The notes: generated from the sequence alone by a model not told the origin. DNA of 64,000 bases from Candidatus Deferrimicrobiaceae bacterium (GCA_963792415.1 CAWBVY010000004.1:352001-416000), one strand, 5' to 3'; shown: positions 5,471 through 64,000, counted from the first letter of the stretch. Numbers and translations are program-made.

Positions 5471-6198
5471 ACGGGCACGGTGAGCAGGACGGAGCGGGGG
5501 ACGCCCCGCGAAAGTTCGACCAGCTCCCCGTCCGCGAGGAGACGCCACCCGGGATCCGCGTCCAGCGGCTCGCTCGCGACGACCGCGAGCCCGTCCCCGG
5601 AGTTCAGGTACAACGTGTAATATTCCCCGTTCCTTTGGTACCGCCGGAACGCGAAGAGTTCTTTGCCGGCTGCGATCAGGAGGTTCGCCGCGGAATATTC
5701 CCCCACCAGTTCGCGGGAGGAGAGAATCCTCCGAAGGGTTTCCGATAATCCCTCCAGCGTCCGTTCCATCCACCGGTTCTCGAGGAGTTCCAGGAATACC
5801 ACGGTGTCGCTGACCTTTCGTGCGTCTCCCTCCGCGCCGATCTTCCCGTAAAAGGTGCCATTGTGCGCGAGGGTCACGCCCAGCGCCTGGAACGGGTGCG
5901 AGTTTGCCGCGAAAACGGTTTCCGGATTCGAAGCGTACCGGACGTGGCCGATGAACCGGTCGGTCACGGCGTTCATCTCGGACAGGAGCGGGTCGGACGC
6001 GGCGGGATTCCCGCTTTTCACCATCCGGATCTCGTCCCCCGCGCGCCAGGCGACCCCCCACCCGTCCGGATGGTTCCCTCCCGGGCGCTTCTCCCAGCCC
6101 GCGACGAGGTTCCCCGATTCGCAGAACCGCGCAAGGGAGGCGAGGTACGGGGAGACGTCCCGCGGTTCGCTCGACGAAAACGCGATCATCCGGCACAT
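5467..6198 (-). CDS. Class II glutamine amidotransferase-like protein (YafJ/EgtC-like)
   Basis: N-terminal MCR (Ntn Cys), HPDGWG, HVRYAS, NSHPF, AHNG, SDT and VASEPL. Confidence 0.88.
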   Translation of the reverse strand: MCRMIAFSSSEPRDVSPYLASLARFCESGNLVAGWEKRPGGNHPDGWGVAWRAGDEIRMVKSGNPAASDPLLSEMNAVTDRFIGHVRYASNPETVFAANSHPFQALGVTLAHNGTFYGKIGAEGDARKVSDTVVFLELLENRWMERTLEGLSETLRRILSSRELVGEYSAANLLIAAGKELFAFRRYQRNGEYYTLYLNSGDGLAVVASEPLDADPGWRLLADGELVELSRGVPRSVLLTVPV

Positions 6199-6283
6199 GC
6201 CTACATGATAACCGCTTCCGACACCCGCGGGGAGCCCCTGCGGAGAATCGGTCTCACGGCGGGTGTCCGGGTGAGGTGTTCGC

Positions 6284-6784
6284 CTACTTCAGCGTGCGCA
6301 GGTACGCGACGACGAGCCAGCGCTCCTTCGCGGTGAGGTCGGAGCGGAACGGGGGCATGCCGTTCCATCCGTGCGTCACGATGGCGAACAGCAGCCCTTC
6401 GGGGGCCTGCCCGAATCCCGTTGCCGAGATGTCCACGGGGGTCGGGACGAACTTCTTCGCCACGGGCCCGTCGCCCTTGCCCGAGGCGCCGTGGCACGGT
6501 GCGCAGTAGATGCCGAACAGCTCTTTCCCGGTGAGGAGGGAGAAGTCGGTCGCCTTCTCCGGATTCCTGAGGGCCGCGGCCTCCGGGGTCCCCGGCATCG
6601 GGGTGTGCTCCAACCCCTTCGTCGGGACGGAGCCCGCAGGGGGAAGGCGCACCGGCTCCTCCTGGGGGCGGAACGCCGGGTTGTCGTACATGTTCCGGTC
6701 GAGCTTCTCGCAGCCGGCGAGGAGCGCCATGCCGAGGAGGGCGGCGACGAAAACGGCGAGCCGGGCGGGGGGGATTCTCCTCAC
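6284..6784 (-). CDS. actE: Monoheme cytochrome c lipoprotein, ActE-like
   Basis: Lipobox LLAGC, MYDNPAFRPQE, a single CAPCH and a distal MP. GTG is coupled to the upstream stop. Confidence 0.82.
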   Translation of the reverse strand: MRRIPPARLAVFVAALLGMALLAGCEKLDRNMYDNPAFRPQEEPVRLPPAGSVPTKGLEHTPMPGTPEAAALRNPEKATDFSLLTGKELFGIYCAPCHGASGKGDGPVAKKFVPTPVDISATGFGQAPEGLLFAIVTHGWNGMPPFRSDLTAKERWLVVAYLRTLK

Positions 6785-7305
6785 AGTTCCCCCTCCTCGG
6801 GCCGCACGTCGATCCCGCCGGCGGATTTCATCGCATCCATCGCCCGTCCCGCCTGCTCGTCGCCGGAGACCCGCGCGCACAGCAGGATCTTCCCCTCCTG
6901 GATCCGCGGGTCGTGGATCAGCCGGGTGCGGAACCGGCAAAGCCCCATCTCCCGGAACCCCGCGATGACCGTTCCCGCCAGCGCGCCGAGCATCGCAACC
7001 TCGTAGGTGATGATCAGGGTCGGGGGAACGGAGATGATCGCCTTCCCGCCCGTGATCAGCGGGTAGAGCAGGTAGGTTCCCAGCGCGAGGGAAAGCCCCG
7101 CGAGCGCGCCGACGAACCAGCCGACGAGCGTGACCCTGGGGAACCCGATCCCGCGCGGGTCCCTGCAGACGGCGCCGTCCGGGAGCGGCATGGGGGAGAG
7201 GGTCGTGACGTCCCCCTCCGGAAGGGGGAGGGCGCGCAAGGCGCGCGCCGCCGCCGCCGCCGGAGCGACCGCGTCGAACAGCCCGACGACCACGATGCCG
7301 TTCAT
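6781..7305 (-). CDS. actD: DUF3341 / ActD-like membrane subunit
   Basis: Two TMs, TLSPMP, GGKAIISVPPTLIITYEV and HDPRI. Lies between the nrfD-like and cytochrome genes. Confidence 0.85.
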   Translation of the reverse strand: MNGIVVVGLFDAVAPAAAAARALRALPLPEGDVTTLSPMPLPDGAVCRDPRGIGFPRVTLVGWFVGALAGLSLALGTYLLYPLITGGKAIISVPPTLIITYEVAMLGALAGTVIAGFREMGLCRFRTRLIHDPRIQEGKILLCARVSGDEQAGRAMDAMKSAGGIDVRPEEGEL

Positions 7306-57343: not shown

Positions 57344-60300
57344 GTGCGGGAGAACCGTGAAAAGGCGGCCAGCGAGTTCCGGCGCGACCTCGCCGTCGAC
57401 GCCTCCGCGGGGACGGGGAAAACGTCCACCCTCGTGGCGCGGGCGACCAACCTCTTCCTCGCCCTTCCGGACCTGTCCACCGACCACGTCCTCCTGCTGA
57501 CCTTCACCGACAAGGCGGCGGCGGAGATGAAGGCGCGGGTCACGGAAGGGTGGGAGCGGCTCTTCGCGGCGACGCAGGAAACCGGCGACATCGACGAGGT
57601 CGCGCTGCGCGCGGCGGCGTGGAACCCGCTCGCCCGCGTTCCAGGGGAACTCTACCCCGACTTCGCCGCGCTGCGCCGGCGGGTCGAGGAGATGGTCGAC
57701 GGGGTGGGCCGCCTCTCCGTGACGACGTTCCACTCGTTCTGCGCCCGCGTTCTCCGCTCCTTCCCGGCGGAGGCGGGGGTCGACCCTCTCTTCGAAGTGC
57801 TGCCGGAGACCGCCGCGGCCGACGCGTGGGACGCCGCGTTCCGGAAATTTCTGCAGGGCGAGTTCGGGGCGGAAGAGGTCCTCCCGGAGTGGGATCGGGT
57901 CCTTTCCCGTCTCCCCGACCCCTCGAAGGCGTGGTGGGTGATCCGCCGCCTTTGCCTCTTCCAGCGCGACCTGCTGCGCGGCCCGGCGCCCGATTTCGGG
58001 TCCCCCCGGGACTTCCTCGGCTTCCTCGTCAGGGAACACGGTCCCGATGTCGATTATTTCCGCTCCTTCGTCGCCGGGACCCTGGCTCCGGAGGACGACC
58101 CGGCGGCGGTCGCGTTCCGGGAGGCGCTCCGCGTCCTCGATTCCGCGTGGGAATCGGTCCTGGAGGGGGATCTCGCCTCCGCCGCGGCGGTCGCGGAGGA
58201 GGGGGCGATGGCCTTTGCCATGGACCTCCGCAAGGCGGCGAGCAAGAAAAAGTTCCCGCGCCCCGAGGGGCCGAAACTGTCCGAGGTGCGCGACGCGCTG
58301 CTCCGGTTCTGGAAACGGGTGGCCGAGGTGCCGGAGGGGGATGCGGCGGCGCGCTTCCTCGTGGCGCGCGCCGGGGCCGCTCTCGCATCGTTCGAGGCGG
58401 CGAAGGGGAGCGGGCTCGACTTCATGGACCTGCTGTTGCGGGCGAGCGATCTTCTCGCGGGGAACCCCGCGGTCGCGCGGCGGCTGGGGGAGCGGTTCCG
58501 GTACATCTTCGTGGACGAGTTCCAGGACACGGACCCTCTGCAGGCGGGGGTTCTCCGGGCGATCGCTGCCGACGCGGCTCCGGGGCGCCTCTTCGTCGTC
58601 GGGGATCCGAAGCAGTCGATCTACGGGTTCCGCCGCGCGGATATCCAGGTGTACAGGCAGTTCCGCGAGGGGATGGTCGACGCCGGGGGGGAGGACGTCC
58701 CGCTGGCCCGCAACTTCCGCAGCCGCCCCGACCTGCTCGCGACGCTCTCGGGCCTCTTCTCCCGCGTTCTCTCCGGCGGGGAGGACTTCTCCCCCGCCTA
58801 CGCGCACGTTGTGCCCAACCGGAACGACCCCGGCGAGGGGCATCCCGTTTCGCTCTATCGGCTCGACCCCGCCGTGGACGAGTCGGAGTTCCTCGCGGCG
58901 CTGGTCGGTCGGATCGCCGGATCGGTGAAGGTCCGGGATCGCGACGGCATCGAACGCCCCGCCTCGTTCCGGGACATCGCCGTCCTCTACCGCTCCGACG
59001 CCTCGGGCGAGGTGCTTTCGGGGTATCGCGCGGCGCTCGCGGCCGCGGGGATCCCCCATGTCGTCCCTTCGCGCAAGGGGTTCTTCCTGCGGCAGGAGAT
59101 CCAGGACGTGCGGATGGTTCTTTCCGCCATCGATGTCCCCGCGGACCGGTCGGCGCGCCACGCGGCGATGAAGACGATCTTCTTCGGACTGTCGGACGAG
59201 GAGATCCACCCGCTCTACGGGGAGGACCCGGCCGCGGTCCCTCCGCGCGTGCGCGAGGCCGTGGCGCTCCTTTCCCGCCTCTCCGCGCGGCGGGGGCGGG
59301 CGTCCCTTCCGGACCTTCTCGCGGCCTTGTACGGGGAGACGGGGGTCGATTTCGTCGCGGCGAGGATTCCCGAGGGGGAGCGGATCGTCCGGAATCTGTC
59401 GAAGGCCGCGGAGATGGCGAGGGCCTTCGAATGGGGCGGCGCCGGTTCCCTCAAGCTCTTTCTCGCGGAGATCCGCCGGAAGGCCGCCGAGGGGCGGGAG
59501 GAGGACGAAGTCCCCGACTTCGAGGAGGGGGAGGACGCCGTGCGCCTTTCCACGATCCACGGAGCGAAGGGGCTCGAGTTCCCGGTCGTGATCCTCGCGG
59601 GGATCTCCCGCGGCGGGCGGAAGGGGCCGGAGGGGCTTCGGGTGGACCGGGTCCGGGGTCTCTCCGCGGTGATCTTTCCCGGGTTCCGGACGTATTCGGC
59701 GTTCCGTCAGGTGCCGGGCGCGGGTCGCCCGGTGACGTTCGAGGAGTGGGAGAAGGAGAAGATGATGGCGGAGGAGCGCCGTCTTCTCTACGTCGCGGCC
59801 ACCCGCGCGAAGGACCGGCTCTACCTGGTGGACCGGGGGACGGGGCCCGGCTCGACCCTTCGGGACGCGCTGATGGAGGGAATCTCCGGGGCGACGGCAG
59901 AGGGGGAGGGCCGCTGCCTCGTCACGGGGCTTCCGGGGGAACGTCTTCGGCTCAGCGAGGGGCCGCCCGACGGGTCCGCGGGCGGGGAGCTGCTCCGGGT
60001 GTCGGTGACGTCGGTCCTGCGGGAGCCGGTCCCGCGTCCCCCCGCGCCTCTCGCCGTCCCGGCGATCGCCTGGGCGCGGGTCGGGGAGGAGGCGGAGCCG
60101 GTCCCGCCCGCGCCGGCACCCGAGCCGGTCTCCCTCGCCGAGCTGCACGGCCGCTTGCGCGGGAAACGGTTCGGGGAGAAGGTCCACCGCGTCTTCGAGG
60201 CGTACCCGCCGGTGACCGACCCGTGGCCGCCGCCGGGGGCGGCCCTTCCGGTGATCTGGGACGGGGAGGAGGAGCGCCGGTGGAACGCGATCGTCGTCGC

Positions 60301-60607
60301 GGTGCGCTCCTCCCCGCTGTTCCGGGAGCTTCGCTCCTCCCGCGTCGTCGGCACGGAGCTGGCGCTCCTCCGGGTCCGGGGCTTCACCGCGGACGAGGAA
60401 CGCGCCGACCTCGTCGTTCGGCTCCCTGGACCGGCGGGGGAGATGCGGGTCGTCGACTACAAGACCGGGGAGCGGGACCGGGCGCTCGAGAAGGCGTACT
60501 TTCTCCAGCTGCGCGAATACCGCGGCATACTCTCCGAGGCGTGGCGGGTCCCCGTGCGCGCCTTCCTCTGGTACGTGGAATCCGGCGCGTCGTTCGAGGT
60601 GGGCTGA
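57344..60607 (+). CDS. addA: AddA/UvrD-like helicase-nuclease
   Basis: ASAGTGKT, TFTDKAA, DEFQDT, VGDPKQSIYGFR, NFRS, TIHGAKGLEF, YVAATRA and VDYKTG. Confidence 0.9.
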   Translation: MRENREKAASEFRRDLAVDASAGTGKTSTLVARATNLFLALPDLSTDHVLLLTFTDKAAAEMKARVTEGWERLFAATQETGDIDEVALRAAAWNPLARVPGELYPDFAALRRRVEEMVDGVGRLSVTTFHSFCARVLRSFPAEAGVDPLFEVLPETAAADAWDAAFRKFLQGEFGAEEVLPEWDRVLSRLPDPSKAWWVIRRLCLFQRDLLRGPAPDFGSPRDFLGFLVREHGPDVDYFRSFVAGTLAPEDDPAAVAFREALRVLDSAWESVLEGDLASAAAVAEEGAMAFAMDLRKAASKKKFPRPEGPKLSEVRDALLRFWKRVAEVPEGDAAARFLVARAGAALASFEAAKGSGLDFMDLLLRASDLLAGNPAVARRLGERFRYIFVDEFQDTDPLQAGVLRAIAADAAPGRLFVVGDPKQSIYGFRRADIQVYRQFREGMVDAGGEDVPLARNFRSRPDLLATLSGLFSRVLSGGEDFSPAYAHVVPNRNDPGEGHPVSLYRLDPAVDESEFLAALVGRIAGSVKVRDRDGIERPASFRDIAVLYRSDASGEVLSGYRAALAAAGIPHVVPSRKGFFLRQEIQDVRMVLSAIDVPADRSARHAAMKTIFFGLSDEEIHPLYGEDPAAVPPRVREAVALLSRLSARRGRASLPDLLAALYGETGVDFVAARIPEGERIVRNLSKAAEMARAFEWGGAGSLKLFLAEIRRKAAEGREEDEVPDFEEGEDAVRLSTIHGAKGLEFPVVILAGISRGGRKGPEGLRVDRVRGLSAVIFPGFRTYSAFRQVPGAGRPVTFEEWEKEKMMAEERRLLYVAATRAKDRLYLVDRGTGPGSTLRDALMEGISGATAEGEGRCLVTGLPGERLRLSEGPPDGSAGGELLRVSVTSVLREPVPRPPAPLAVPAIAWARVGEEAEPVPPAPAPEPVSLAELHGRLRGKRFGEKVHRVFEAYPPVTDPWPPPGAALPVIWDGEEERRWNAIVVAVRSSPLFRELRSSRVVGTELALLRVRGFTADEERADLVVRLPGPAGEMRVVDYKTGERDRALEKAYFLQLREYRGILSEAWRVPVRAFLWYVESGASFEVG

Positions 60608-60626: not shown

Positions 60627-61106
60627 TCAGCGGACCCGCTTCAGGTAGATGAGCTTGTCGTCGCCCATCGCGTAGTAGTCGGGCAGCCGCGCGGCGAGGG
60701 TGCAGCCGACCTTGTCGTAGAATTGCCGCGTCGTGCCGTAGCTCTCCAGGGACGACGTCTCGATCACCAGGAGGTACCCCCCGCGTCGCCGGACCTCCTC
60801 CTCGACGAACGACAGGATGGACCGTCCGTACCCTTTTCCCATCCGGTCCGTGCGCGTCGCGATCCAGTACAGGTCGAAGGTCCCCGTCGTCATCGCGTTC
60901 TTCCCGAAGCAGGCGTAGGCGACCACGGTGCCGTCGTCCTCCACCAGGACGTACGGGTGGTAGTCGTCCTGCCCTTTCTGCGTCAACGCGACGTCCACCA
61001 GCTCCATGGCCACGTCCACCTCGAACGGCTTGAACGCGTTCGTTCCCGCGACCAGTTCCCGGATCGCCTCGCGGTCCCCCGCCTCGATCCCGCGGACGCG
61101 CGTCAC
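60627..61106 (-). CDS. GNAT family N-acetyltransferase
   Basis: DLYWIA, RMGKGYG acetyl-CoA motif, IETSS and FY..G...DYY. GTG is coupled to the upstream TGA. Confidence 0.88.
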   Translation of the reverse strand: MTRVRGIEAGDREAIRELVAGTNAFKPFEVDVAMELVDVALTQKGQDDYHPYVLVEDDGTVVAYACFGKNAMTTGTFDLYWIATRTDRMGKGYGRSILSFVEEEVRRRGGYLLVIETSSLESYGTTRQFYDKVGCTLAARLPDYYAMGDDKLIYLKRVR

Positions 61107-62131
61107 CGCGCCCCCAGGGCCATGCCCAGCCGCAGGATCTCGGCGATAAGGTCTTGGTAGGAGAGCCCCGCCGCGCGCGCCGCGCGCGGCATCCCCGCGT
61201 CGGTGGAGATGTCGGGATTCGGGTTGACCTCGAGGACGAACAGCTCCCCTTTGGCGTTCATGCGGAAGTCGACCCTGGCATACCCGGTCAGGCGGAAGAT
61301 CCGCGCACAGGCGAGGGTGATCTCCGAAAGCCGGGCGGCGAGCCCGGGCGGGACGTCCGCGGGGCAGGCCGGGGCGATCTCCGAATAGGAGGGGTGCGTC
61401 GCGTTCCACTTCGAATCGTACGTGCAGAGCCGCCAGCGCGGGTTCCGGTAGACGAGCTCCGCGGGTGGGAGCGACCGGTGCGGATCGGTGGCCGACCCGT
61501 TCCCGAGCACGCCGACGTTGAACTCCCGCCCCTCGACGAACTCCTCGACGAGCGAATCCTGCTGGAATGTTTCCCTCAGCCACTTCACCTGCCGGCGCAG
61601 GCCGGCCAGGTCGGCGACGACGCTGTCCTCGGTGATCCCGGCCGAGCCGTCCTCGTTCGCCGGTTTCACGACCAGCGGGTACGAAAGCCCCGGCTCCCGG
61701 GCGGGATCGCCGGTGCAGAGCCGGAAGCGCGGCGTCGGGATCCCGTTGGCGATCATCAACTGCTTGGAGAGCGCCTTGCTGTTGCAGATCCCGAGCGCGA
61801 GCGGCCCGTTTCCGGTGTACGGCAGGCGGAGCAGTTCGAGGAGGGCGCAGGCGTGGAGCTCCTTTTCGGGGGAGAGGTCCGGGCACTCGCACAGGTTGAA
61901 GACCGCCTCGGCCCCGGAGGAACGCAGCCCCGAGATCAGCTCCCCGGGGTCCTTTCCGAACGCGTGGGTCCACGCGTCGTGGCCGGCGGAGCGAAGGGTC
62001 TCCGTCACCAGCTTCGCGTTGATCGCCAGGTCCATGTCCTCCCGGTGTTCCTCCCTCACATCCTTGAGCGATTCGAAGACGGAGGTGTAGAGGACGGCGA
62101 CGCGCGCCCCCTTCGTCGCGACCGGGGTCAC
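61103..62131 (-). CDS. D-Ala-D-Ala ligase-like ATP-grasp protein 2
   Basis: VFNLCE, PYTGN, KPANEDGSAG, EEFVEGREF, RVDFR and LEVNPNPD. Confidence 0.87.
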   Translation of the reverse strand: MTPVATKGARVAVLYTSVFESLKDVREEHREDMDLAINAKLVTETLRSAGHDAWTHAFGKDPGELISGLRSSGAEAVFNLCECPDLSPEKELHACALLELLRLPYTGNGPLALGICNSKALSKQLMIANGIPTPRFRLCTGDPAREPGLSYPLVVKPANEDGSAGITEDSVVADLAGLRRQVKWLRETFQQDSLVEEFVEGREFNVGVLGNGSATDPHRSLPPAELVYRNPRWRLCTYDSKWNATHPSYSEIAPACPADVPPGLAARLSEITLACARIFRLTGYARVDFRMNAKGELFVLEVNPNPDISTDAGMPRAARAAGLSYQDLIAEILRLGMALGAR

Positions 62132-63120
62132 GCGGCCCCCATCCCGAGGCGGGAAAGGGCGTGCGAGAGGATCTCGCCGACGAGGGACAGGTAAGGGATC
62201 CCCATCCGGTCCGCCAGGATCGGCAGGTCGCCGTACCCCGGGGAAAGGCCCGGCAGGGGGTTGCACTCGATGAAGTGCGGCGTGCCCGAAGCGTCGAGAC
62301 GGAAGTCGATCCGGGAGAAGTCGCGGCATCCGAGGGCCCGGTAGATCCCCAGCGCGCACCGCTCGATCTCCGAGAGGACCTCTGCCGGCAGCGCCGGGGG
62401 GACGCGGTACGCCACGCGGTTCTCCCAGTCCCTCTTCACCTCGAGGGAGTATACGAACTCGGCCGGGGGGACCGTCTTCGGAACGATCTCCATCATCCCG
62501 GCGACCCGGGGCGGATCGTTCCCCAGCACTCCCACCGTGACCTCCGCCCCCGGCACGAACGCCTCGACCATCGCTTCCTGGCGGTATGTCCGTGTGACGA
62601 ACCGCACCATCTCCCTCGCCTGGTCGAGCGACGCTGCGCGCGAAGCGATCCGGACCCCTTTGCTCGATCCTTCGAAGACGGGTTTCACCATGACGGGGTA
62701 GGGAAACGGGAGAGAATCGAGCTCCTCGGCGGACCGGAAGGTCCGGAACGGCGGGGTGGGAAACCCGTCGTGCTCCACGAGGCGCTTGGCCACCGGCTTG
62801 TCGAGGGTGACGCAGAGCGTGAGCGGATCGGAGCCGACGTACGGGACGCCGAGCATCTCGAGGACGGCAGGGACATGCGCCTCGCGGCACCGGCCGCCTT
62901 CCCCTTCCGCGATGTTGAAGACGATGTCGGGCGCGGCGCCCCGCAGCGCGTCGACGAACCCGCGTCCGGCGGGAAGCCGGCGGACGTCGTGGCCCAGGAG
63001 GGAGAGGGCGTTCTCGATGTGGCCCACCGTCGCCTCTGAGTCGTACTCCTCGAAGGCGTCCTCGGGCAGCTGTTCGGGCGTGTCGGCCGGCTTTACGTTG
63101 AAGGCGAGCCCGACTCGCAC
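62128..63120 (-). CDS. D-Ala-D-Ala ligase-like ATP-grasp protein 1
   Basis: VFNIAEG, PYVGSD, LDK, KPVFEGSSKG, RIDFR and IECNPLPG. Confidence 0.87.
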   Translation of the reverse strand: MRVGLAFNVKPADTPEQLPEDAFEEYDSEATVGHIENALSLLGHDVRRLPAGRGFVDALRGAAPDIVFNIAEGEGGRCREAHVPAVLEMLGVPYVGSDPLTLCVTLDKPVAKRLVEHDGFPTPPFRTFRSAEELDSLPFPYPVMVKPVFEGSSKGVRIASRAASLDQAREMVRFVTRTYRQEAMVEAFVPGAEVTVGVLGNDPPRVAGMMEIVPKTVPPAEFVYSLEVKRDWENRVAYRVPPALPAEVLSEIERCALGIYRALGCRDFSRIDFRLDASGTPHFIECNPLPGLSPGYGDLPILADRMGIPYLSLVGEILSHALSRLGMGAA

Positions 63121-64000
63121 CGGCGTTTCCTCCTGGCCATCCGCTCGTTCCCCGCGGGGATGAGCGCGCGGACCTCCCCGGTCAGCAGGCGGTAGACGTC
63201 GTTGCGCGGCGGAGGGAGCGCCGAATCGACCCGCGCCGAAGGGCGGCCGTCGTCCCGCGCCTCCTCGTAGCTCACGACGATCCCCTCGTAGTTCCGCAGG
63301 ACCGTCCGGTCCTCGCCCATCGAGAGGATGTAGTTCGGCATCAGCGGGATCTTGCCGCCGCCCCCGGGGACGTCCACCACGTAGGAGGGGATCGCGAGCC
63401 CCGAGGTGAGGCCCCGCAGCGCCTCCATGATCTGGATCCCCTTCGACAGGCGGGTTCGGAAATGGTCGAGCCCCCGGACCATGTCGCACTGGAAGAGGTA
63501 GTAGGGGCGGACCTTCGCCCTCAACAGCTCCGTGTTGAGCTTCCGGATGATCTCGGCGTGGTCGTTGACGCCCTTGAGCAGGACGGTCTGGTTGTTGACG
63601 GGAACGCCCGCGCGAAGGAGCCGGTCGCACGCCTGGCGCGCCTCGGGGGTGACCTCCCGGGAGTGGTTGAACTGCGTGTTCAGCCAGACGGGGCCGTACT
63701 TTTCGAGCACCGCGCACAGCTCGTCGTCGATCCGCATCGGGAGGACCACCGGCACGCGGGTGCCGATCCGGATGATCTCGACGTGCGGGATCTTGCGGAG
63801 GCTCTTCAATATGTACTCGATCCGATCGGTCGGAAGCGTCAGCGGGTCCCCCCCCGAGACGATGACGTCGCGGATCTCCTCGTGGCGGCGGATGTAGGCG
63901 AACATCTTCGACAGCTCGAACTCGGTCTTCGCCGATTCGCCCAGGGTCCAGATCCGCTTCCGCGTGCAGTGGCGGCAATACATCGAGCAGAAGTTGGTGA
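63093..64000 (-). CDS. kamA: KamA-family radical SAM lysine 2,3-aminomutase (5' end outside window)
   Basis: CSMYCRHCTR, SGGDPL, RIGTRVP, NQTVLLKGVND, PYYLFQCD and VVDVPGGGGKIP. Confidence 0.92.
   Translation of the reverse strand, partial: TNFCSMYCRHCTRKRIWTLGESAKTEFELSKMFAYIRRHEEIRDVIVSGGDPLTLPTDRIEYILKSLRKIPHVEIIRIGTRVPVVLPMRIDDELCAVLEKYGPVWLNTQFNHSREVTPEARQACDRLLRAGVPVNNQTVLLKGVNDHAEIIRKLNTELLRAKVRPYYLFQCDMVRGLDHFRTRLSKGIQIMEALRGLTSGLAIPSYVVDVPGGGGKIPLMPNYILSMGEDRTVLRNYEGIVVSYEEARDDGRPSARVDSALPPPRNDVYRLLTGEVRALIPAGNERMARRKRRCESGSPST

Follow-up and report, generated by a model that had tools for sequence, protein, structure and literature searches.

A 64,000-nucleotide stretch of DNA from Candidatus Deferrimicrobiaceae bacterium (G000:C4:352001-416000; hereafter, the window) ends within what is, judged by its gene junctions, a five-gene operon encoding an XRE-cupin regulator, a KamA-family lysine 2,3-aminomutase, two ATP-grasp ligases resembling D-alanine–D-alanine ligase (Ddl), which we call LIG1 and LIG2, and a GNAT N-acetyltransferase. 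On balance, and with slightly better than even confidence, we favor the interpretation that this operon makes a small cytoplasmic beta-lysine peptide or amide, possibly a solute or stress protectant. KamA would convert L-lysine into beta-lysine by radical S-adenosylmethionine (SAM)/pyridoxal phosphate (PLP) chemistry. LIG1 and LIG2, whose substrate pockets appear to differ from that of Ddl and from one another, would then form two successive ATP-dependent amide bonds between beta-lysine and one or two common amino or amine partners. Finally the GNAT, where present, would acetylate a leftover free amine and so remove its positive charge. The product would serve inside the cell as a compatible solute or stress-protectant metabolite, like N-epsilon-acetyl-beta-lysine and N-acetylglutaminylglutamine amide (NAGGN); this role is the least secure part of the proposal.

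All five genes lie on the minus strand. The whole kamA gene (63093..64412, 439 codons) crosses the window end, with its C-terminal 301 codons inside (63093..64000), and the DNA past that end was taken from the genome. It is followed by lig1 (62128..63120, 330 aa), lig2 (61103..62131, 342 aa) and, as last gene of the operon, the GNAT gene (60627..61106, 159 aa). Translational coupling was evident at all three junctions: the TAA of kamA ends at 63093 and the GTG of lig1 stands at 63120, giving a 28-nt overlap (63093..63120) with an AGGAGG 7 nt upstream of that GTG, and LIG1/LIG2 and LIG2/GNAT are joined by GTGA stop/start overlaps at 62128..62131 and 61103..61106. The sequence-only reading that preceded this work had described four overlapping minus-strand genes with these junctions, and reading the sequence bore it out at every checkable point. 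It had also proposed looking upstream for further operon genes. There we found, on the same strand and 72 bases upstream of kamA, a 178-aa XRE-HTH and cupin regulator (window-equivalent 64485-65021), preceded in turn by a sigma-70-like promoter, TTGACA-17-TAGAAT (65091-65063, minus strand, 11/12 matches), approximately 40 nt upstream of the regulator ATG. The promoter scan revealed no such site between the regulator and kamA or further down. Downstream, a long open reading frame (ORF) on the plus strand (57344-60607) converges on the GNAT gene and ends 19 nt from its stop. Because of the junction overlaps, the upstream regulator with its one promoter-like site and the convergent downstream ORF, we consider the unit a five-gene operon. 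Terminator-like sites in the region numbered 0 against 3.6 expected by chance, and are therefore uninformative. PuuR was the best model for the regulator, but its 58.4 bits (cut-off 211) amount to a likeness at the family level only.

KamA (439 aa) scored 354.7 bits against the KamA-family model TIGR00238 (cut-off 199.2) and has the LAM_C and Radical_SAM domains in Pfam. Among the equivalog models, its top score was for AblA (TIGR03820), at 510.3 bits and below the cut-off of 525.4; scores for the glutamate aminomutase (478.7 bits, cut-off 650), arginine aminomutase (395.7 bits, cut-off 600) and EpmB (TIGR03821; 247.2 bits, cut-off 369.3) models were also below their cut-offs. The protein carries the motifs CSMYCRHC (CX3CX2C), YYLFQCDMV and YVVDVPGGGGK. 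From the Clostridium enzyme, we take the QCD and VVDVPGGGGK residues to be the two aspartates that bind lysine and the lysine that binds PLP. The earlier description of KamA as lysine-type agrees with these motifs and with their conservation in the 45 KamAs linked to related clusters, 42 of which retain Q[CA]D and 44 DxPGGGGK. The prediction that KamA makes beta-lysine from L-lysine is well supported. The operon KamA was the sole KamA-family match in the genome as searched, with 72 kb of contig C6 outside the search. No match to beta-lysine 5,6-aminomutase (PF09043) was found in the genome, but the control matched no genome either, which leaves this negative unvalidated.

Both ligases belong to the Ddl family. 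The Pfam domain Dala_Dala_lig_C was matched by LIG1 with 115.1 bits and by LIG2 with 96.5 bits, whereas Dala_Dala_lig_N (PF01820) had no match in either; the true ddl of the genome matches it with 67.6 bits. Against the Ddl models NF002378 (cut-off 243) and TIGR01205 (cut-off 245.65), LIG1 reached 163.1 and 132.4 bits and LIG2 reached 130 and 114.4. The two are 32% identical to each other, and LIG1 has ECNPLPG where LIG2 has EVNPNPD, the difference from which the sequence-only reading had set them apart. Models built with AlphaFold2 had a pLDDT (predicted local distance difference test) of 88.8 for LIG1 and 82.4 for LIG2, and the nearest solved folds of both were Ddl (Foldseek template-modeling score 0.75-0.84, 21-29% identity). 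The ESM Atlas returned Ddl-family clusters only, and close homologues bear generic source names ('D-alanine-D-alanine ligase', 'ATP-grasp domain-containing', 'GNAT', 'RimI-like').

An alignment of 58 LIG1 and 58 LIG2 sequences to DdlB of E. coli and to the genome's own Ddl separated what is conserved from what has changed. Of the LIG1 orthologues 55-58 of 58, and of the LIG2 orthologues 58/58, retain the DdlB residues K97, K144, E180, E187, K215, R255, D257, E270 and N272. Since the ATP, Mg and acyl-phosphate residues are intact, LIG1 and LIG2 are expected to be active, acyl-phosphate-forming ATP-grasp ligases rather than pseudo-enzymes. This fits the original remark that they have ATP-grasp motifs and lack the GGxSxE N-terminal motif of Ddl. 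The replaced positions are H63 (to E in 58/58 LIG1 and 55/58 LIG2), E68 (to R in 58/58 LIG1), S150 (A or G in LIG2), Y216 (W in 58/58 LIG2; W in 37 and R in 21 LIG1), G276 (to D in 58/58 LIG2) and S281/L282 (A/G in LIG2; S/C or G/D in LIG1); the E15 column is a gap in 34/58 LIG1 and 37/58 LIG2. Of these, S150, Y216, S281 and L282 are positions that we assume to line the D-Ala sites. The LIG1 pocket (Y216/S281/L282) comes in two versions, R/G/D in the lineage studied here (19 loci) and W/S/C elsewhere (34 loci).

We considered and rejected the possibility that LIG1 or LIG2 is the housekeeping Ddl, on account of the sub-cut-off scores, the missing GGxSxE motif and N domain, the changed D-Ala-site positions and the absence of a dcw or mur context. 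The operon contains nothing beyond the regulator, kamA, lig1, lig2 and the GNAT gene, as expected from the earlier statement that the ligases lie away from any mur/dcw cluster. The sequence-only reading had suggested that a canonical ddl should exist elsewhere, and it does: on contig C6 (G000:C6:772265-773149; 281.2 bits against a cut-off of 245.65), within the dcw cluster in the order ftsW-murG-murC-murB-ddl-ftsQ-ftsA. An alternative D-Ala-D-X, or a stem-peptide end bearing beta-lysine, would draw on the Ddl/VanA fold of the ligases, on their best matches (Ddl and Van models) and on the label of the GNAT's solved relative, 'putative D-alanine N-acetyltransferase'. We find such a cell-wall variant extremely improbable, given the replaced D-Ala-binding positions, the lost N-terminal motif, ligase scores at about half of the Ddl cut-off, the canonical ddl in the dcw cluster, the lack of conserved mur, van or racemase genes nearby and the occurrence of the module in archaeal records. 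The peptidoglycan modification that had been offered as one possible product is likewise weakened, because records labeled Bathyarchaeota, Methanosarcinales, Woesearchaeota and Thaumarchaeota carry the module.

Several observations suggest that the two ligases work together. In a tree rooted with Ddl, LIG1 forms its own clade (58/58), as does LIG2 (support 0.991). The pairwise identities of LIG1 and LIG2 correlate (r = 0.84; reached by 0/999 permutations), although relatives are not independent and the value therefore shows co-inheritance only. We surveyed 100 LIG2 homologues of 600-2000 aa for natural fusions, by blastp against the operon proteins. In 27 of them a LIG1-like N-half is joined to a LIG2-like C-half, in the order of the genes; both halves are closest to LIG1 in 22, another N-terminal part precedes a LIG2-like C-half in 46, only a LIG2-like N-half was recognized in 3 and only a LIG1-like N-half in 1, and 1 (P0339) combines ligase pieces with a GNAT 45% identical to that of the operon. 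Among the 46, about 31 (roughly 806 aa) carry other N-terminal domains of ATP-grasp/L-amino-acid-ligase type, one of these being from Elongatibacter sediminis, and 15 are fused to a SAM methyltransferase, one of them named from Methanoculleus; LIG2-like fusions occur in the protein sets P0324-P0338 and P0272-P0320.

A model of the LIG1+LIG2 complex scored 0.87, the best of 3 controls reaching 0.27. The runs had at least 97% of contacts in common, with a partner pLDDT of 83 or more. The mark applied was reached by 116/157 solved complexes and by 2/215 mismatched pairs, rates that hold only roughly here because our own alignments were used. We regard the fusions as a stronger argument for joint work than the complex model. 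Taken together, model and fusions suggest that LIG1 and LIG2 work as a pair, probably as a heterodimer. The heterodimeric ligase proposed earlier is accordingly plausible as to pairing, with 27 fusions and a model that passed its controls, while the choice between a heterodimer and homodimers is one that the model does not make.

The gene set is conserved far beyond the lineage in which it was first seen. A scan with the LIG2 alignment, using one genome per species, gave at least 598 pattern matches, of which at least 587 were confirmed by tblastn. To the best 80 of these loci we added the operon studied, mapped the five proteins in all 81 and clustered ORFs of at least 90 aa; several loci end at contig edges. 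All four enzyme genes were found together at 32 of the 81 loci, LIG1+LIG2+KamA at 10, LIG1+LIG2+GNAT at 12, LIG1+LIG2 at 4, LIG2+KamA at 3, LIG2+GNAT at 2 and LIG2 alone at 18. Thus the ligase pair is adjacent in 58/81 loci, KamA lies within the locus in 45/81 and the GNAT stands beside the ligases in 46/81. Judging from how the records are titled, Ignavibacteria/Ignavibacteriota, Bacteroidota, Chlorobiaceae, Aminicenantes, Acidobacteriota, Deltaproteobacteria and Thaumarchaeota have the full set, and Bathyarchaeota, Methanosarcinales, Woesearchaeota and further Deltaproteobacteria have the GNAT-less set. The synteny survey that had been called for thus came out positive. In the operon studied the genes run reg-kamA-lig1-lig2-GNAT; most other phyla show the order lig1-lig2-GNAT-kamA, and one deltaproteobacterial group has lig1, a histidine kinase, a sigma-54 regulator, a response regulator, kamA and lig2. 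That the set is conserved despite the reshuffled order argues for function rather than mere inheritance.

Loci without a neighboring kamA need not lack the enzyme. In the five genomes tested of 12 KamA-less groundwater loci, a KamA 46-50% identical to that of the operon was found elsewhere in all five. A small MerR-like ORF stands directly upstream of a detached kamA at L094:1-2864(-), L093:1088-2577(+) and L095:1387-2847(-), and in L094 the order is MerR-like gene, kamA, dnaK. Among 41 relatives, the ligase is carried by 22/24 genus genomes, 1/7 of the sister family and 2/9 of the rest of the phylum, and KamA matches above 340 bits are confined to the ligase-bearing genus and to one further genome (G043), in which KamA adjoins a ligase pair.

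Some individual loci call for separate comment. In one close relative (L007:5721-7036) KamA was matched in two frames (5721-6284 and 6278-7036), which reflects either a frameshift or a long-read assembly error, and this split KamA was not counted. Two contigs carry clusters in the same order as the operon, regulator included: L014 (labeled Actinomycetota; 78-94% identical) and L015 (labeled Limnocylindria; 59-79% identical). They may be mis-binned, or the cluster may have been recently transferred. The solo LIG2, at 14 loci (L032, L034, L035, L037, L041, L045, L062, L068-L071, L075, L079 and L082), divergently adjoins a 278-aa protein with weak likeness to Peptidase_C39 (26.1 bits). Lacking LIG1, GNAT and KamA, this solo subclade probably has a different function.

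No further gene family was common to more than one lineage at the loci, and specifically no transporter, hydrolase or tailoring enzyme; nor was any small ORF within 1.5 kb of the clusters conserved across lineages. PADLOC anti-phage models matched each enzyme with 0 families and the regulator with generic HTH models only. Carriers include small genomes of 1.5-3 Mb, one of them labeled Woesearchaeota, in which the module sits among housekeeping genes. Because the genes are accompanied by no exporter, precursor peptide or hydrolase, and because such carrier genomes are small, a cytoplasmic metabolite is favored. In one deltaproteobacterial group only (L022:1604-1798, L033, L051, L056, L057, L065, L066, L078 and L083), a 64-aa ORF is conserved upstream of kamA; its start resembles a signal peptide/lipobox and its tail is rich in Ala, Pro and Lys.

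These neighborhoods bear on two other interpretations. Bacilysin, tabtoxin and rhizocticin are antibiotics made by ATP-grasp L-amino-acid ligases, and the operon might similarly produce a secreted secondary metabolite, an antibiotic or metallophore, with the GNAT conferring self-resistance. LIG1 does match the L-amino acid ligase BL00235 (3vot, E 3.5e-9), the GNAT has a weak match to the streptothricin acetyltransferase model (17.2 bits against 420), and the negamycin cluster is reported to pair beta-lysine formation with ATP-grasp enzymes (bioRxiv 10.1101/2025.05.27.656397). Yet exporter, tailoring and resistance genes are not conserved, the module sits among housekeeping genes in those 1.5-3 Mb genomes, including the Woesearchaeota-labeled record, and it is near-universal in the genus (22/24), which together make a secreted product very unlikely. 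On that account, the earlier assertion that the known uses of beta-lysine (lysine fermentation, EF-P modification and the AblAB osmolyte) do not need ATP-grasp ligases was too strong.

Alternatively, the two ATP-grasp enzymes and the GNAT could modify a ribosomal precursor, as MdnB, MdnC and MdnD do in microviridin, making the product a graspetide-like RiPP, synthesized on ribosomes and modified after translation. The gene content matches that of the microviridin cluster, and the solo LIG2 adjoins its Peptidase_C39-like gene. We give this hardly any credence: KamA-family enzymes act on free amino acids, the MvdD maturase model (TIGR04184) matched nothing at the locus, sequence and fold both place the ligases in the Ddl family, no small ORF is shared across lineages near the clusters, and the operon has no room for a precursor gene.

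The identity of the amine partner is where the favored beta-lysine peptide meets another competitor. The partner could be a polyamine (agmatine, putrescine or homospermidine), giving a beta-lysyl- or aminoacyl-polyamine conjugate resembling glutathionylspermidine. At 12 groundwater 'Deltaproteobacteria' loci (L018-L021, L025, L028, L030, L036, L038, L042, L072 and L076; for example L020:4611-10519), a deoxyhypusine-synthase-like gene (PF01916, 323 bits) and a pyruvoyl arginine decarboxylase (PF01862, 205 bits) stand, in this order and on one strand, immediately upstream of LIG1, LIG2 and GNAT, and in these loci a methyltransferase and a second GNAT come after the GNAT. The presence of these two genes next to the ligases points to a polyamine rather than an amino-acid partner. 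Acidic replacements at Ddl G276 (D in 58/58 LIG2) and L282 (D in 19 LIG1), positions whose roles we presume from what is known of Ddl, would suit such a partner. So would PuuR as the regulator's best model, and the solo LIG2 with its cysteine-peptidase-like gene resembles synthetase/amidase pairs. Nevertheless, the 12 loci are one related group and thus a single evolutionary instance, they contain housekeeping neighbors as well (recJ, SLT and dihydroorotate dehydrogenase), the DHS-like gene in the genome studied lies approximately 160 kb away and the PuuR score is far under its cut-off (58.4 against 211). We therefore regard a polyamine partner as unlikely.

The GNAT is a short RimI-like protein, scoring 34.7 bits for Acetyltransf_1 (gathering score 20.7) and 32.4 bits for the RimI equivalog (cut-off 86.4). 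Its only close solved relative is 2r7h (E 1.3e-32), a structural-genomics entry, presumably from a Desulfovibrio, described as 'putative D-alanine N-acetyltransferase of GNAT family'. An AblB-type acetyltransferase (TIGR03827) had no match in the genome at E <= 0.001, in a search whose control was above cut-off in 2/14 genomes. With the GNAT missing from 35/81 loci and no exporter or immunity-type gene conserved nearby, the idea that it provides self-protection has lost ground.

A beta-lysine-producing enzyme could also serve translation elongation factor P (EF-P). KamA might mainly feed EF-P modification as a replacement for EpmB, the ligases and GNAT being passengers or modifiers of EF-P or of another protein. 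The genome does encode EpmA (G000:C7:181438-182454; 304.2 bits at 181453-182385, above the cut-off of 286.9) and a Lys-type EF-P with a KPGKG loop (G000:C6:469901-470452), and the operon KamA is the only KamA-family gene found in it. Sister-family genomes without the ligases have EpmB-like KamA matches, which score 248-267 bits and stop at model position 320, and genus genomes have the same single KamA match, of about 345-358 bits. Together these observations indicate that in this genus the operon KamA may have replaced EpmB or may also feed EpmA. As the principal role of the operon, however, EF-P modification is decidedly unlikely. EpmA was above cut-off in 0/5 cluster-bearing genomes of other groups (0/4 without the unpublished G008), so EF-P modification cannot be what the module does in general. 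Archaea have the module too, the KamA score on the EpmB model is well under the cut-off, KamA is linked to the ligases by coupled translation and by conserved synteny, the 72 kb of contig C6 outside the search could hide an epmB, and Ddl-family enzymes are not known to act on proteins.

Returning to the cytoplasmic beta-lysine metabolite, two faint hints of a stress function are the MerR-kamA-dnaK arrangement (L094) and the origin of the sequencing runs containing this stretch, which were estuary, aquatic and sediment samples. The stretch was present in 20 run rows from 17 studies, 6 being RNA libraries. Contigs from 4 RNA libraries covered 30/30 bins and bridged all three junctions, but they show neither strand nor expression level, and their depth cannot rank genes.

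A number of points weigh against our interpretation. KamA falls 15 bits short of the cut-off for the AblA equivalog, and all the steps after it are inferred. The complex model does not separate a heterodimer from two homodimers; as Ddl homodimers have been solved, its pass may reflect likeness only. The GNAT is absent from 35/81 loci, and acetylation is consequently not obligatory. LIG2 stands alone in 18 loci and there forms a nested subclade, which means that a tie to beta-lysine does not hold throughout the ligase family. The RNA-library contigs are no proof of transcription, since DNA carry-over is possible and the convergent neighbor is covered too. Many carriers come from groundwater, with no call for an osmolyte. 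Finally, EpmA is also in the genome, and part of the beta-lysine may go to EF-P. A bolder version, which we consider possible but doubtful, is that KamA, LIG1, LIG2 and, mostly, the GNAT constitute a cross-domain ATP-grasp 'mini assembly line' for a new class of N-capped beta-lysine tri-(pseudo)peptide, which would act in the cytoplasm as a compatible or stress solute, and that KamA in this genus also took over the EpmB role.

Full-text literature searching found no published description of the KamA/LIG1/LIG2/GNAT cluster, in keeping with the original suggestion that the pathway is undescribed. Each enzyme family is known; as far as these searches reach, what is undescribed is how the families are combined, how broadly the set occurs and that its Ddl-like ligases stand in tandem or fused. 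The at least 587 LIG2 relatives in one-genome-per-species contigs have carriers labeled as at least 6 bacterial and 4 archaeal groups, mostly uncultured anaerobes from sediments, estuaries and groundwater. Knowing the product would put a name to thousands of genes now called 'D-alanine--D-alanine ligase' or 'RimI-like', and would clear away one cause of mistaken cell-wall and vancomycin-type annotations among archaea and bacteria. The product could turn out to be a new beta-amino-acid metabolite, or a solute that matters ecologically where sediments are exposed to salinity or stress, and tandem Ddl-like ligases, separate or fused, would serve as biocatalysts for beta-amino-acid peptide bonds. 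If the assembly-line version is true, beta-lysine would have one more fate, in addition to lysine fermentation, EF-P modification, N-acetyl-beta-lysine and antibiotics.

Among known systems, AblAB, Ngg and PylB/PylC come nearest to the operon in their logic. With Ddl/VanA-type ligases, LIG1 and LIG2 have in common the fold and the ATP, Mg and acyl-phosphate residues; the GGxSxE motif and N domain are found in Ddl only, positions H63, E68, S150, Y216, G276, S281 and L282 are changed in the operon ligases, and Ddl belongs to the dcw cluster, whereas LIG1 and LIG2 lie outside it and are present in archaea. AblA and AblB constitute the N-epsilon-acetyl-beta-lysine osmolyte pathway of methanogens and some bacteria. 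Like our operon, this system places a lysine 2,3-aminomutase and a GNAT in one operon, and AblA is the best equivalog of KamA. In contrast, the GNAT here is a RimI-like protein of 159 aa and not AblB, two ATP-grasp ligases lie between, and KamA falls 15 bits under the AblA cut-off. In pyrrolysine synthesis, PylB, a radical-SAM lysine mutase, feeds the ATP-grasp ligase PylC, by which the rearranged amino acid is joined to another amine. The logic of PylB/PylC/PylD is the same; however, PylB is not of the KamA family, the operon has no PylD, and the PylC model (TIGR03909, cut-off 248.3) gave 24.4 bits on LIG2 and 10.5 on LIG1.

In Ngg/AsnO, GNAT and ATP-grasp activities yield an N-acetylated cytoplasmic dipeptide osmolyte, NAGGN. 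A natural ligase-GNAT fusion also exists in the operon's ligase family (P0339). Ngg differs in being a single bifunctional protein, of another ATP-grasp lineage, and in having no aminomutase. The microviridin enzymes MdnB, MdnC and MdnD likewise comprise two ATP-grasp enzymes and a GNAT per cluster, but they act on a ribosomal precursor, and in the operon there is neither an MvdD match nor a conserved precursor ORF. In EpmA/EpmB, a KamA-family enzyme supplies beta-lysine for ATP-dependent ligation, and EpmA and a Lys-type EF-P are found in this very genome; the difference is that EpmA is a LysRS paralogue rather than an ATP-grasp enzyme, and that KamA is under the EpmB cut-off. A further parallel is the negamycin (neg) cluster of Kitasatospora, in which beta-lysine formation is reported to be colocalized with ATP-grasp enzymes (bioRxiv 10.1101/2025.05.27.656397). 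The neg genes, however, encode an antibiotic pathway of an actinomycete, whose heme N-N-forming enzyme, hydroxylase and N-methyltransferase are all absent from the operon.

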